From positions 1-9,411 of the IMG/VR virus record IMGVR_UViG_2606217106_000011: 9,411 nt of DNA, one strand, 5' to 3'. This document shows, piece by piece, positions 224 to 6,380 of this stretch. Position 1 is the first letter of the stretch. Every line of letters starts with the position of its first letter. The stretch is from a virus. Lineage: Duplodnaviria; Heunggongvirae; Uroviricota; Caudoviricetes. The translations under genes were made by a program, and so were the position numbers. A model generated the notes under the pieces. It was not told where the DNA came from. It made no database searches and saw only the letters and a program-made list of their open reading frames with translations.

Positions 224-1450
224 ATGGCATTTAAACACTATGACGTGGTCAGGGCGGCGTCGCCGTCAGACCTTGCGGAGCGACTGACACAAAAACTGAA
301 GGAGGGGTGGCAGCCATTTGGCAGTCCGGTGGCCATCACGCCTTATACCCTGATGCAGGCCATTGCGGCGGAAGGTGATGTCACCACACCTGTGGTGGTG
401 AAGCCGTCGGATGGAGAAGGCGCAGTTATCAGCACCACCAGCAACTCGGAGTATTACTTTGTTGTTGCCCTGGCCGGGCAGTCAAACGGTATGGCGTATG
501 GTGAAGGGCTTCCGCTGCCGGAGACATATGACCGTCCGGACCCGCGCATTAAACAGCTGGCGCGTCGCAGCACTGTCACGCCGGGTGGTGCGTCCTGTAA
601 CTACAATGACATTATTCCTGCGGACCACTGCCTGCATGATGTTCAGGATTTGAGTAAGTTTTCACACCCGAAAGCCAGCGCAGCTCAGTATGGATGCGTG
701 GGGCAGGGATTACATATCGCGAAGAAATTGTTGCCGTTTATTCCGGCGAATGCCGGTATTCTTCTGGTTCCGTGCTGCCGTGGTGGTTCTGCATTTTTGG
801 CGGGCGATGAAGGTACCTTCAGCGAATCCACCGGCGCAAGCGAGACCTCGGCACGCTGGGGTGTAGATAAGCCACTGTACAAGGACCTGCTTACCCGTAC
901 TCAGGCCGCACTGAAGGCTAACCCTAAAAATATTCTGCTTGCAGTGGTCTGGATGCAGGGCGAGTTTGATTTGAAACAGGGTGCATACGCCACTCAGCCG
1001 GGGCTGTTTGATTCCATGGTGGAAAAATATCGTTCTGACCTGTCGGAATTCGGAGGTCAGTGTCTCGGGGGCTCTCCGTCATCGGTTCCCTGGATTTGTG
1101 GCGACACGACCTACTACTGGAAGCAGACTTATTCTTCGCAATACGATGCGGTGTATGGTGCATACAAGACGAAATCCGCAAAAAAAATCTTCTTTGTGCC
1201 GTTTAGACGGATGAAAACGGGCGAAATGTGGGTACCAACGAGCCGTCAGAAGATCCGGATGTTGCGGATATTGGGTATTACGGAGCCGGTGGTCGAACGG
1301 ACGCCAAAACCTGGACGACGGCCGACCGTAAAACGCATTTTGGATCATGGGCACGTCGTGGGATTATTTCCGACCGTCTGGCAACGGCGATTCTTGTGCA
1401 TGCCGGGAGAACCGCTGAATTCATTACCGGAAAACAGCCTGATACGGTGA
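224..1450 (+). CDS. nanS-p: Prophage NanS-p-like sialate 9-O-acetylesterase, N-terminal and catalytic part; frame lost near 1204-1220, so the 3' tail of this ORF is probably out-of-frame read-through
   Basis: ORF 224-1450 with SD GGGAGGA (214-220) before the ATG. The N-terminus (MAFKHYDVVRAASPSDLAERL...) resembles the DUF1737-type module of these esterases, and ALAGQSNGMAYGEG carries the GQSN block of SGNH/SASA esterases. Position upstream of S-R-Rz matches Stx-type lambdoid prophages. The final ~80 codons are arginine-rich and look non-native. Confidence 0.7.
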   Translation: MAFKHYDVVRAASPSDLAERLTQKLKEGWQPFGSPVAITPYTLMQAIAAEGDVTTPVVVKPSDGEGAVISTTSNSEYYFVVALAGQSNGMAYGEGLPLPETYDRPDPRIKQLARRSTVTPGGASCNYNDIIPADHCLHDVQDLSKFSHPKASAAQYGCVGQGLHIAKKLLPFIPANAGILLVPCCRGGSAFLAGDEGTFSESTGASETSARWGVDKPLYKDLLTRTQAALKANPKNILLAVVWMQGEFDLKQGAYATQPGLFDSMVEKYRSDLSEFGGQCLGGSPSSVPWICGDTTYYWKQTYSSQYDAVYGAYKTKSAKKIFFVPFRRMKTGEMWVPTSRQKIRMLRILGITEPVVERTPKPGRRPTVKRILDHGHVVGLFPTVWQRRFLCMPGEPLNSLPENSLIR

Positions 1451-2184
1451 AGCCCACCGGACCTTCCGGTGAAGGTACGGAGAGAGAGCCGGAAGCCCCG
1501 GTCAGTAACCGAACCCTGATGAGTCTGCTGGCGTCCGGCGAAGACCTGGCATCACAGGGCTGGCGCTATTATCACAAACCGGCGAGCGGAGACAATGTTA
1601 ACAAAAACATTGCTGAAGCGGTGGTCAGTGATGCGGGGGCTACGGGAGGTAAGGCCCTGCAACTGAATAAACCGGAAAACCACATCTGGTTTCTGGAGCA
1701 TGATGCAGCCGGACAGGGAGTGGAGTTACTGAAGAAGGGGGGACGTGTGAGCGTACGGTTTAAGTTGCCGGGTTCACTGGTGCCGAATCGGTTTGCCCTG
1801 GGCATTTACTGGCAGTTGTCGTCCCTGCCGGAGGGAGTGACGCTGGCAGAGGAAGGCAACGACATGCTGATGTCCTTCTTCCTGCAGACGGATGCGACGA
1901 ACCTGAACGCGATGTACCACAAGAAGCCGAATGCGAAGCTGGATACGTTCGGGGTCTTTGATAACGGATGGCACACACTGGCTTTTGAGTTTGCCGGAAA
2001 CAACAGCATTCAGGTGACGCCGGTACTGGATGAGAAACGGGGGACGCCGTTCACACTGGTGAAATCTCCGGCATCAGGGGCGGCGGACAAACTGCAACTG
2101 ACAGGCATATCAAAGGCGGCGACATATACGCTGCTGATTGACAGTGTGAAGGTGGAAGTGAACAACGCGGATGCCGCGGCATGA
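1207..2184 (+). pseudogene. C-terminal portion of the same NanS-p-like esterase, in a different frame (frameshifted remnant, or continuation if the shift is a sequencing error)
   Basis: This frame is open from 1207, directly after an in-frame TAG at 1204-1206, to the stop at 2182-2184. The translation (TDENGRNVGTNEPSEDPDVADIGYYGAGG...) looks protein-like. Span 224-2184 is 1961 nt, one nucleotide short of a multiple of three, consistent with a single-base deletion. Confidence 0.65.
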
Positions 2185-2884: not shown

Positions 2885-3100
2885 ATGTACCAGATGGAAA
2901 AAATCACAACAGGTGTGTCATACACCACGTCAGCGGTGGGGACGGGCTACTGGTTCCTGCAGCTGCTGGACAGGGTTTCCCCGTCTCAGTGGGCGGCAAT
3001 AGGCGTACTGGGGAGTCTGCTGTTTGGTCTGCTGACGTACCTGACGAACCTGTATTTCAAAATCAGAGAGGACCGTCGTAAGGCGGCTCGGGGAGAGTAG
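2885..3100 (+). CDS. S: Class II holin, phage-21 S21-type pinholin with dual-start motif
   Basis: 71-aa product with close identity to the S21 pinholin as recalled ([23 protein letters not shown]...[22 protein letters not shown]). Two Met codons (M1, M4) as in the S21 antiholin/holin pair; two TM segments; SD GGGAGA (2873-2878). Confidence 0.9.
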
Positions 3101-3103
3101 ACG

Positions 3104-4096
3104 ATGAATAAAAAATATGAACTGGTTGTAAAAGGGATAAATCATTACCCGGATAAGATAGCTGTTACTGTGGCACTGGAAATTGGTGGGTATCCGCCAC
3201 TGTTGTTGCCAAATGTGGCGATTAGTCTTGACCGTACTGAAGGTGCCACGCTGGAGTTTTACGAAGCTGAGGCGAAAAAGCAGGCGAAGCAGTTTTTCAT
3301 GGATATTGCTGCCGGGTTATGTGAAGGGGATGAACCGTTGCCAGAAAAGCGCCCCATAATTTTAGAGGCGCAGGATGTGTTGATAACCTACAAAGGAAAG
3401 CTACCGGGAAGAATTACTGATGCTCTGAAGATGCCGCCGTCAACACTGCGGTCAGAAAAAGATGATATTGAATCACGCATTGAAAAACTGGAGTGCTGTG
3501 TTACTGAATTGAAAAAAAGCACCCCAACAAAAAATGAGGTGCTTGCAGCAGATGAAATGAAAGAAACTATTCTTGAATTAGCTGCGCGCCTGAACTGCGC
3601 TTCACTGTTGAAAGAGCATTTTCAGCAGCCTGAAAAAAAACGCCGCGATGAGCAGCAGTTTGCGGCGTTTTACGATTATTGCCGGAAAGTGATGAGCAGA
3701 AATCTCGCAGAGTGTTTCAGTATTCATAATGATAATTTCAGTGAGCTGGAATGGGAGTGTAACCGGCCATCCTTTGTTGTATCCGGTGATGGTGGGAAAA
3801 TAACCATCTCAGAAAATGGGAAAGTAACACCTCCATCGCACCAGCACAGTGAGGAGCTCATTGAATTTGCCATTGATTACCTGAAGAACAATAAAAAGCA
3901 GGGGCTGATGAAGCGCGTTGGCCGTTGCATGGGATATCTGCAGGTAGCTGCTGAGATTGAAGCGCTTGCCAGTGGTGCAGACAGGGATACTGCGGTGCGG
4001 GAGGTCCTTCTTCGTGATTTCAATACTCCGCCCTTTAAGAAAGAGCCTGATGGCTGGCTCCAGCCGGGGCTGAATTATCTCAAAGGGCGGATATAA
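3104..4096 (+). CDS. Hypothetical protein (330 aa), AT-rich insertion between holin and endolysin; function unknown
   Basis: Long uninterrupted ORF. ATG 3104 lies 3 nt after the holin stop and uses the SD GGGAGAG (3091-3097) inside the holin 3' end. Visibly lower GC than the flanking lysis genes (by eye). No Walker A, HExxH, HNH, lipobox or signal peptide seen; charged, partly coiled-coil-like middle region. Confidence 0.75.
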   Translation: MNKKYELVVKGINHYPDKIAVTVALEIGGYPPLLLPNVAISLDRTEGATLEFYEAEAKKQAKQFFMDIAAGLCEGDEPLPEKRPIILEAQDVLITYKGKLPGRITDALKMPPSTLRSEKDDIESRIEKLECCVTELKKSTPTKNEVLAADEMKETILELAARLNCASLLKEHFQQPEKKRRDEQQFAAFYDYCRKVMSRNLAECFSIHNDNFSELEWECNRPSFVVSGDGGKITISENGKVTPPSHQHSEELIEFAIDYLKNNKKQGLMKRVGRCMGYLQVAAEIEALASGADRDTAVREVLLRDFNTPPFKKEPDGWLQPGLNYLKGRI

Positions 4097-4102
4097 GTAC
4101 TG

Positions 4103-4417
4103 TTATCTGTTACCTGATAATTGTCTGAACAGGCGATCTTTTTGTGATTTGGCGTAATGATTATCCCATTCGCAATCAAGGTAACTTAATTCTTCATTTA
4201 ACCAGTCATCTATATTGTCTTTCAGGCGAAGGAGCAAGGTTGGTGTTAATGCTCCGGATATAATACTGAGAGTTGCAGTAGTGAGAGCTCCATACGGTTC
4301 AGCCTGAATGGCCTTTACTGCTTCGTGTTCTTGCGGGAGGAGTAAAAGGCATTCCGATTTTACCCGCTCATTTATGGCTTGCAGGTATAAATCATAATTA
4401 TGTTGATGGTTATGCAT
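4103..4417 (-). CDS. Hypothetical protein (104 aa), convergent partner of the 330-aa ORF; function unknown
   Basis: Minus-strand ORF starting at the ATG complementary to 4415-4417, with SD GAGGA 7 nt upstream on that strand. Its stop (4103-4105) lies 6 bp from the stop of the 3104-4096 gene. AT-rich like its neighbour. The longer ORF-track version (to 4669) overlaps the endolysin start and has no SD. Confidence 0.6.
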   Translation of the reverse strand: MHNHQHNYDLYLQAINERVKSECLLLLPQEHEAVKAIQAEPYGALTTATLSIISGALTPTLLLRLKDNIDDWLNEELSYLDCEWDNHYAKSQKDRLFRQLSGNR

Positions 4418-4545
4418 AGTTAATCCTCGACTGGAATTGTCAGATATATTTTCAGCCAGCAGATAAAACGCCAGTGCCCACCACTGGCAGGCTGAAGACT
4501 TAACATATCCAGGGGGCCGGAACCGATAAATCCTGATAAATATCC

Positions 4546-5079
4546 ATGAACGCAAAAATCCGATACGGCCTGTCGGCTGCCGTTCTGGCGCTGATTGGTG
4601 CAGGGGCGTCTGCGCCTGAAATCCTCGACCAGTTTCTTGACGAAAAAGAAGGCAACCACACCACGGCATACCGTGATGGTGCGGGTATCTGGACCATCTG
4701 CCGTGGTGCCATCATGGTGGATGGCAAACCTGTCGTTCCGGGCATGAAGTTGTCGAAGGAAAAATGCGACCAGGTTAACGCCATTGAGCGTGATAAAGCG
4801 CTGGCGTGGGTGGAGAAAAACATCAGAGTGCCGCTGACCGAACCCCAGAAAGCGGGGATCGCGTCATTCTGTCCGTACAACATTGGTCCCGGTAAGTGTT
4901 TCCCGTCGACGTTTTACAGACGAATTAATGCAGGTGATCGCAGGGGAGCATGCGAAGCGATTCGCTGGTGGATTAAGGACGGTGGCAGAGACTGCCGTAT
5001 TCGCTCAAACAACTGTTACGGTCAGGTATCCCGTCGCGACCAGGAGAGTGCGCTGGCGTGCTGGGGAATTGACAGATAA
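4546..5079 (+). CDS. R: SAR endolysin (T4-lysozyme-like muramidase with N-terminal signal-anchor-release domain), R21-like
   Basis: N-terminal Gly/Ala-rich weakly hydrophobic segment (YGLSAAVLALIGAGASAP), then the catalytic E-x8-D-x5-T arrangement in EGNHTTAYRDGAGIWTICRG. Sits in the lysis cassette with pinholin and Rz/Rz1. No recognisable SD directly upstream. Confidence 0.9.
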   Translation: MNAKIRYGLSAAVLALIGAGASAPEILDQFLDEKEGNHTTAYRDGAGIWTICRGAIMVDGKPVVPGMKLSKEKCDQVNAIERDKALAWVEKNIRVPLTEPQKAGIASFCPYNIGPGKCFPSTFYRRINAGDRRGACEAIRWWIKDGGRDCRIRSNNCYGQVSRRDQESALACWGIDR

Positions 5080-5169
5080 GCAGAATATTTTGCTGAAAAA
5101 TGCGGTTTGCTCACACGGACGGATAACACGAAATCCTGCGAACTGACAAAAACTAAGTGAATAAAAGTA

Positions 5170-5210
5170 AAAACCCCGTTTGTTGGCTGCAAGCGGGGTT
5201 TTGTGTTTCT
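5170..5210 (+). terminator. Intrinsic-terminator-like hairpin (possibly bidirectional) between R and the small-peptide/Rz genes
   Basis: Stem CCCCGTTTG (5174-5182) / CAAGCGGGG (5190-5198), 9 bp with one G-U pair and a 7-nt loop, followed by TTTTGTGTTTCT (5199-5210) and preceded by an A-rich tract. Confidence 0.5.
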
Positions 5211-5235
5211 GACCTTGGATAAGGCAAGGGAGAAC

Positions 5236-5418
5236 ATGGAAAAGTATAAACGAATTCTGTTGAGGTTGACTATGAAAAACGGCCTTGAACTGAAAGCGCC
5301 AGTAACTGATGACATCAGCAGAGCGCTGGCTTTTGCTATTAAGTGGGTGGCGGTTGGTATCGCTGTGTCTCCGATACTGTATGGGCTGGCAAAACTGGTC
5401 ATTGCGCTGAAATCGTGA
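5236..5418 (+). CDS. Hypothetical small membrane protein (60 aa)
   Basis: ATG 5236 preceded by SD AGGGAGA. The C-terminal half is a hydrophobic helix (ALAFAIKWVAVGIAVSPILYGLAKLVIAL). Paralogous to the following 28-aa ORF. Confidence 0.4.
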   Translation: MEKYKRILLRLTMKNGLELKAPVTDDISRALAFAIKWVAVGIAVSPILYGLAKLVIALKS

Positions 5419-5429
5419 ACTTTAAAAAG

Positions 5430-5516
5430 ATGAGTGCTGAACTTATTCGGGCAATGGCATTTGCCATTCGTATTGTGGCCATTGCTGTTCTGGTCTGGGC
5501 AATCCGTTGGTGGTGA
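5430..5516 (+). CDS. Hypothetical hydrophobic peptide (28 aa), paralogue of the preceding ORF
   Basis: ATG 5430 to TGA 5514-5516, product [28 protein letters not shown]. Aligns with residues ~38-55 of the 5236-5418 product (RALAFAIKWVAVGIAV vs [16 protein letters not shown]). Its stop is 1 nt before the Rz ATG (5518). Below the ORF-track size cutoff; weak SD. Confidence 0.3.
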
Positions 5517-5517
5517 T

Positions 5518-5985
5518 ATGAACCGTGTTCTGTGTGTGGTGATTATTGTCCTGCTGGTAGCCTGTGGTGTGCTTAGTCTGGGGCTGAATCATTACCGCGA
5601 TAACGCCATCACCTACAAAGCGCAGCGCGATAAAAAAGCCAGAGAGCTGGAGCTGGCAAACACAACCATTACTGACATGCAGCAGCGTCAGCGTGATGTT
5701 GCTGCGCTGGATGAAAAATACACAAAGGAGTTAGCCGATGCGAGAGCTGAAAATGAAACTCTGCGCGCTGACGTTGCCGCTGGTCGCCGCAGCCTGCGTA
5801 TCAACGCCACCTGTCCAGGTTCCGTGCGTGAAGCCACCGGCACCGCCCGCGTGGATAATGCAACCGGCCCCCGACTGGCAGACACCGCTGAACGGGATTA
5901 TTTCACCCTCAGAGAACGGTTGATGACAATGCAGAAGCAACTGGAAGGGGCGCAGGACTATATCCGCACTCAGTGTATTAACTAG
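5518..5985 (+). CDS. Rz: Rz i-spanin (inner-membrane spanin subunit)
   Basis: Strong similarity to lambda Rz as recalled ([61 protein letters not shown]...[27 protein letters not shown]). N-terminal TM helix. ATG 5518 chosen over the GTG-extended ORF-track start at 5434. Confidence 0.9.
5738..5923 (+). CDS. Rz1: Rz1 o-spanin (outer-membrane lipoprotein spanin subunit), embedded in Rz in another frame
   Basis: Embedded ORF with SD AAGGAG (5725-5730); lipoprotein signal ending in Cys (LPLVAAAC) and the proline-rich block [30 protein letters not shown], as in lambda Rz1. Confidence 0.85.
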
Positions 5986-6008
5986 TATTTTTGTTATCCG
6001 GAGAATGC

Positions 6009-6233
6009 ATGAAGAAATTACTGGTAACCGTAAAGCCTTTTCAGGGAACAATTCCGTTCCGTATTTTGCAGCGTGGTCGTGTTCTTGTTGAAGGTTCGTT
6101 CAGTGGTAAATGTACGCAATTACACTCCCGGACCTTTCAGGTGAATGCCACGAATGAAGAGCTAACCGTTGAGTGTACGATGAATGCCGCTAAATGCCGC
6201 ATGGTATCCGCTGCATTACAGCCAGTGTCTTGA
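6009..6233 (+). CDS. Hypothetical protein (74 aa)
   Basis: ATG 6009 with SD GGAGA 5 nt upstream, immediately after the Rz stop. No motif recognised; not lambda Bor. Confidence 0.45.
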   Translation: MKKLLVTVKPFQGTIPFRILQRGRVLVEGSFSGKCTQLHSRTFQVNATNEELTVECTMNAAKCRMVSAALQPVS

Positions 6234-6267
6234 GCGACCTTATTAACCATGCGCGGTATTGTCGCCG

Positions 6268-6380
6268 TATCCCCGCATTAACAGAGACCGCAGCCCGACC
6301 GGGAGACTCCTCTGCGCGAGTGTGCGGGGATAATCAAAAACGATACACACCGGGGTTTACCGCGTTAACGGAGCGCGGCG
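6268..6380. repeat. Structured non-coding segment: 10-bp perfect inverted repeat plus a direct-repeat motif CCGC(A/G)TTAAC(A/G)GAG
   Basis: TATCCCCGCA (6268-6277) is the exact reverse complement of TGCGGGGATA (6323-6332), 45 bp apart. CCGCATTAACAGAG (6273-6286) recurs as CCGCGTTAACGGAG (6360-6373). No convincing ORF in this ~330-bp gap; overlapping ORF-track entries look like noise. Confidence 0.4.

Follow-up and report, generated by a model that had tools for sequence, protein, structure and literature searches.

A single-base deletion in a prophage nanS-p gene of Escherichia coli: a probable null allele with the catalytic histidine codon out of frame

The chromosomal protein NanS (YjhS) is a single-domain protein of 326 aa with an atypical active site, a Ser-His dyad without an Asp. 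A passage of PMC9063846 that cites Rangarajan et al. 2011 gives the two catalytic residues as Ser19 and His301. The NanS-p esterases are well documented, as is their occurrence in multiple copies in E. coli genomes (PMC8065619, PMC10462455); among them are 933Wp42/z1466 of 933W, vb_24B_21/gp84 of phi24B and the five alleles of O104:H4. In NanS-p the histidine block is the conserved SGNH "block IV", which reads RSSH or RASH in Stx-phage alleles (PMC10462455).

The DNA analysed here (the window, 9,411 nt) is the entire contig JNRB01000114.1 of E. coli 2-460-02_S3_C1. It carries a gene that shares with the E. coli prophage NanS-p genes both the DUF1737, SGNH and DUF6645 layout and the place in the late region, upstream of DUF1378, DUF826 and a holin-endolysin-Rz cassette, and that is 99.8% identical at the nucleotide level to the gene for WP_000874454.1 of O104:H4. 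It differs from them in a deletion at codon 328, which cuts the start codon off from the His block and the C-terminal domain, and also in its surroundings, as the window has no stx genes and the host prophage appears defective. The likeness to chromosomal NanS (PDB 3PT5) extends over residues 73-391, with the GQSN serine and the last-block histidine aligned, whereas NanS has neither the DUF1737 nor the lectin-like domain and the window gene is unable to encode the His-containing part in frame. The features of the gene are as follows, with residue numbers referring to the intact protein.

224-1450, plus strand: 5' ORF of the disrupted nanS-p, 408 codons, of which 1-327 are native and the following 81 are out of frame, ending at the stop TGA 1448-1450
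230-373, plus strand: DUF1737 N-terminal domain, residues 3-50, intact (Pfam PF08410, E = 6.9e-16)
440-1395, plus strand: region homologous to NanS/YjhS, SGNH fold, residues 73-391 (phmmer against PDB 3PT5, E = 1.4e-118), interrupted at 1205/1206
482-484, plus strand: codon of the catalytic Ser87 in the GQSN motif, equivalent to NanS Ser19, which stays in frame
1180-1187, plus strand: A8 homopolymer, the same in intact alleles and, by alignment, not the indel site
1205-1206, plus strand: single-base deletion site, the T of codon 328 (ATG) being gone between these two bases by alignment
1207-2184, plus strand: 3' remainder in the original frame, codons 329-653 and the stop, detached from the start codon
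1336-1338, plus strand: codon of the catalytic His372 in the RKTH block, equivalent to NanS His301, now out of frame with ATG 224
1447-1450, plus strand: GTGA overlap of the stop TGA 1448-1450 with GTG 1447 of the original frame, with a weak Shine-Dalgarno sequence
1612-2166, plus strand: C-terminal lectin-like jelly-roll domain, homologous to the crystallised C-terminal domain of phi24B NanS-p (PDB 6YP6, E = 9.5e-61)
about 1729-2070, plus strand: DUF6645, residues 503-616 (Pfam PF20350, E = 4.7e-44)

The 408-aa ORF from 224 to 1450 and the open frame that runs on to 2184, where it closes with TGA TAA (2182-2187), are offset by one nucleotide, and the span from 224 to 2184 measures 1961 nt; both observations had been made in an earlier note on this DNA and both hold. 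The intact nanS-p gene of O104:H4 and many other strains has 1962 nt and 653 codons, which agrees with the frame of about 653 codons estimated in that note and with the 653 aa of WP_000874454.1. The two halves together match one 653-aa protein (DUF1737, SASA/NanS-like domain and DUF6645), so that they are, as had been supposed, parts of one gene and not two unrelated genes. When the window gene is aligned with intact 1962-nt homologues (the WP_000874454.1 genes at loci L001 and L002), a single gap is found, which confirms that a NanS-p-like esterase gene has been split by the deletion of one nucleotide. The lost base is the T of codon 328, between window positions 1205 (A) and 1206 (G), which agrees with the earlier note, where it had been placed at or after 1204 and probably within 1204-1220; the intact codons CCG TTT ATG ACG GAT stand against CCG TTT A-G ACG GAT in the window. 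The surrounding sequence TTTA(T)GACG, with the lost base in parentheses, is not a homopolymer, and the TAG at 1204-1206 was created by the deletion itself (TATG to TAG). The site reads TTTATGACG in the intact form and TTTAGACG in the deletion form. The A8 run was also considered as the lesion site and is ruled out, being unchanged in the intact alleles, in agreement with the earlier note. Besides the gap there are 2-3 substitutions relative to L001 and L002, at 446, 547 and 676; that at 446 (C to T, P75S) is present in 5/5 frameshifted copies and in neither of the two intact alleles compared.

How much of the enzyme is spared by this deletion depends on where the catalytic domain is taken to end. 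The Pfam SASA match (PF03629, E = 1.8e-9) covers residues 83-274 (window 470-1045) and is partial, with profile positions 7-157 of 226. Because it stops at residue 274, the catalytic domain looks untouched by a frameshift at codon 328, and the earlier note accordingly held that the first ORF encodes the whole SGNH catalytic region. This does not stand, as the homology to 3PT5 runs to residue 391 and His372 lies past the shift, its codon being 44 codons downstream. In the alignment, positions 30 and 312 of the 337-residue 3PT5 chain, which are native Ser19 and His301 if the chain carries an 11-residue tag, pair with Ser87 and His372, and the block IV equivalent of the window reads RKTH. Pfam-based domain maps of NanS-p make the catalytic domain more than 100 residues too short. 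Taken feature by feature, the 408-aa ORF retains the N-terminal DUF1737 and a central SGNH/SASA domain with the GQSN nucleophile Ser; the His block is not in the same polypeptide as this Ser, and the lectin-like domain, although encoded, is in the other frame and is not fused to the esterase.

The proposed consequence of losing the T of codon 328 from this prophage gene, whose intact form would encode a sialate 9-O-acetylesterase, can be followed along the reading frame. Translation from ATG 224 would yield 327 native residues, which take in DUF1737 and SGNH blocks I-III with the nucleophile Ser87, and then 81 foreign residues up to the stop at 1448-1450. Such a product would be without the last ~64 residues of the SGNH fold, without the general base His372 and without the entire lectin-like C-terminal domain. 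The earlier note had suggested that a truncated esterase could still be made; as an active enzyme this is not borne out, because the 408-aa product, while keeping Ser87, lacks both the catalytic His372 and those last ~64 fold residues and is predicted to be inactive. Homology to NanS argues strongly that it would be enzymatically dead, and, the NanS dyad being atypical, residual activity of a His-less fragment is formally possible. Judged by its sequence, the DNA is a NanS-p family member by descent whose encoded product is not a complete enzyme.

One way in which a full-length esterase might nevertheless be made is programmed recoding, either by -1 ribosomal frameshifting or by transcriptional slippage at the A8 run. 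It is true that 19 nt upstream of the deletion there is a perfect A_AAA_AAA heptamer (1180-1186) and that -1 is the direction required, but a shift at the A8 run leads directly into the TAG at 1204-1206, and the same run is present in intact alleles, where no shift is needed. A scan for slippery X_XXY_YYZ heptamers between 1205 and 1450 found none, so that there is no heptamer at the junction, and the relatives are read in a single frame. The frameshift is moreover limited to one clonal allele, while 484 contigs carry the intact form. When the 81-aa out-of-frame tail was used as a protein query to look for conserved use of the alternative frame, only two fragments came back, P0031 and P0032 (81 aa each), from loci L011 and L012; since both come from copies with several frameshifts, they give no sign of a conserved alternative frame. 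We regard recoding as extremely unlikely.

The two loci that supplied these fragments are decayed nanS-p copies (L011, 3023-4979 of OZ039457.1; L012, 350-1493 of Logan SRR30949601) that resemble the window gene in being broken into several ORFs, some of which run into the alternative frame of the window ORF and share its stop. They differ from it in being in three or four ORFs with several frameshifts elsewhere, whereas the window allele has a single lesion. Their breakage reflects either heavier decay or error-prone (long-read) assemblies.

A second possibility is that the split gene is functional, an N-terminal piece (DUF1737 and partial SGNH) and a separately initiated lectin-like domain serving in non-enzymatic roles. 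DUF1737 and the 6YP6-like domain each lie complete inside a single ORF, and the phi24B homologue gp84 is proteolytically processed, with the DUF1737 domain alone decorating the capsid (bioRxiv 10.64898/2026.04.10.717836). The GTGA overlap could permit translational coupling, at a level that may be low, and GTG 1447 is taken as the start of a 245-aa ORF by some metagenome gene callers (L007, L008). The signals for initiation speak against this reading, as the native start has a strong Shine-Dalgarno sequence (GGGAGG, -10.3 kcal/mol) and that of every start in the downstream frame (GTG 1228, GTG 1396, GTG 1447, ATG 1519 and GTG 1621) is weak, at -3.5 kcal/mol or weaker. Further points against it are that only one clonal allele is split, with no indication of selection for the split, that a prophage deprived of its capsid genes by the terL-J deletion described below would have nothing to decorate, and that the 81-residue foreign tail would likely destabilise the N-terminal piece. 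A functional split gene, with GTG 1447 or ATG 1519 as the candidate second start and capsid decoration or glycan binding as possible roles, is thus highly improbable. That the split is tolerated or used, the DUF1737 fragment or a GTGA-coupled lectin-like domain still serving a purpose other than catalysis, for instance in decorating particles or in binding glycans or mucin, seems to us highly improbable as well; if true, the locus would be a natural domain-separation variant of NanS-p and not a dead gene.

The distribution of the two forms is markedly uneven. Megablast of the 1961-nt span against 5426 complete E. coli genomes, at a coverage of at least 80%, gave 371 records in 369 genomes, with a median of 4 matching places per genome for nanS-p. 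Among the matches listed (40 of the 371 records), all are 1962 nt long and 99.3-99.8% identical, and they underlie genes annotated as "SASA family carbohydrate esterase" or "DUF6645 domain-containing protein"; WP_000874454.1 of O104:H4 strains is among the megablast matches, and the 484 contigs mentioned above are those on which this intact protein is recorded. The frameshift junction, as a 51-nt query, has 0 matches in the same 5426 genomes, and the exact junction pattern was found in none of the GTDB representative genomes, in none of the JGI metagenomes and, in IMG/VR, on one contig, the sister-colony contig JNRD01000120. The frameshifted allele is rare and lineage-specific. The WGS accessions JNRB, JNRC and JNRD gave no results in a literature search.

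This rarity raises the question of whether the strain truly has an intact 1962-nt gene from which the T was dropped in the consensus. Only one base separates the window gene from a very common intact allele, and the junction is in 0 complete genomes. The identical 1961-nt allele is nevertheless present in five assemblies, namely JNRB01000114.1, JNRC01000170.1, JNRD01000120.1 and the ENA metagenomes ERZ27275984 and ERZ28581214, all five copies being identical over the gene including the linked SNPs 446T and 547C. Judging by their consecutive accessions and the strain name, JNRB, JNRC and JNRD are probably colonies from one stool sample. With one sample and one sequencing project and pipeline behind them, these three isolate assemblies are not mutually independent, which leaves room for a shared error, and any independence would have to come from the two metagenome contigs. 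The latter overlap the window by 2606 and 2543 nt at 99.96-100% identity, and their names point to different assemblers (k141_, MEGAHIT-style, and scaffold-style). One of the two has a single-base difference from the window outside the gene and therefore does not represent the same data. The non-homopolymeric site also argues against an error, as does the rest of the contig, on which no further gene is frameshifted. DUF1378 (60 aa), DUF826 (89 aa), holin (71 aa), lysozyme (177 aa), Rz (155 aa), HNH (121 aa) and TerS (187 aa) are all of normal length, and the assembly is therefore not indel-ridden. In light of the recurrence of the deletion with its linked SNPs in two differently assembled metagenome contigs, the statement in the earlier note that it could equally be a sequencing error is not supported; a consensus error is very unlikely, and the deletion appears to be real and inherited.

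The prophage in which the allele resides was examined from the same contig. Downstream of nanS-p are genes for DUF1378, DUF826, a class II holin, a DUF1327 ORF, lysozyme, Rz, TonB_C, HNH and TerS, a set that reads as the usual late region of a lambdoid prophage. The upstream side of this setting is known from relatives only, as the window starts 223 nt before the gene; in L001, L002 and L009 the Q and tRNA-Ile/Arg genes precede the intact homologue. This position is the site of the stx genes in Stx phages. Two terminator-like hairpins were noticed upstream of nanS-p, one at 10-29 on the minus strand (CCCGCGTCTCCCAGCGCGGG then ATTTTTTT) and one at 99-114 on the plus strand (CTGCGCAATAGCGCGG then CCTTTTT), the second about 110 nt before the start codon. 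A scan of 1-2400 for promoters and terminators gave no plus-strand promoter-like site within the gene.

At 8949-8954, near the far end of the window, nt 1-462 of terL are fused to a middle part of the tail-tip gene J, the two matches overlapping by 6 nt (window 8494-9411). The J portion corresponds to J nt ~2189-2651 and is 99.4% identical to gpJ of O104:H4, and the junction is found in no complete E. coli genome. If it is real, it looks as though all head genes and most tail genes have been deleted and the prophage is cryptic, and a frameshifted accessory gene fits this picture of decay.

Several other observations concern the region between nanS-p and the lysozyme gene. A 330-aa DUF1327 ORF (3104-4096, plus strand) lies between the holin (2885-3100) and the lysozyme (4546-5079), at a place where the closest relatives have shorter or different genes (YdfR family, hypothetical), and is followed by an antisense 104-aa ORF (4103-4417, minus strand) with no Pfam match. 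The sister contig JNRD01000120.1 (L005), which carries the identical pseudogene, diverges from the window from about 2941 (compared over 2941-6332), first by 8 SNPs in 2941-3102 and then in mosaic segments only 92-94% identical. Either two prophages share the allele or recombination moved it between prophages.

Taken together, the gene is very probably a real, inherited null allele (pseudogene) in a prophage that appears also to have been stripped of morphogenesis genes, and we infer neutral decay rather than selected loss. The gene family is a known one; this null allele is previously undescribed and is an ordinary lineage-specific pseudogene. Strains with nanS-p usually carry several copies, so that losing one of them probably changes the phenotype little. 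For annotation, the two ORFs deposited as "hypothetical proteins" (KDY47262.1 and KDY47263.1) are better read as one nanS-p pseudogene. For the family as a whole, the end of the Pfam SASA match (residue 274-276) is used in the literature as that of the "catalytic domain", whereas the SGNH fold reaches ~391 and holds the catalytic His. Because of this extension, a protein truncated between residues 276 and 372 seems undamaged on a domain map but is predicted to have lost the catalytic His.
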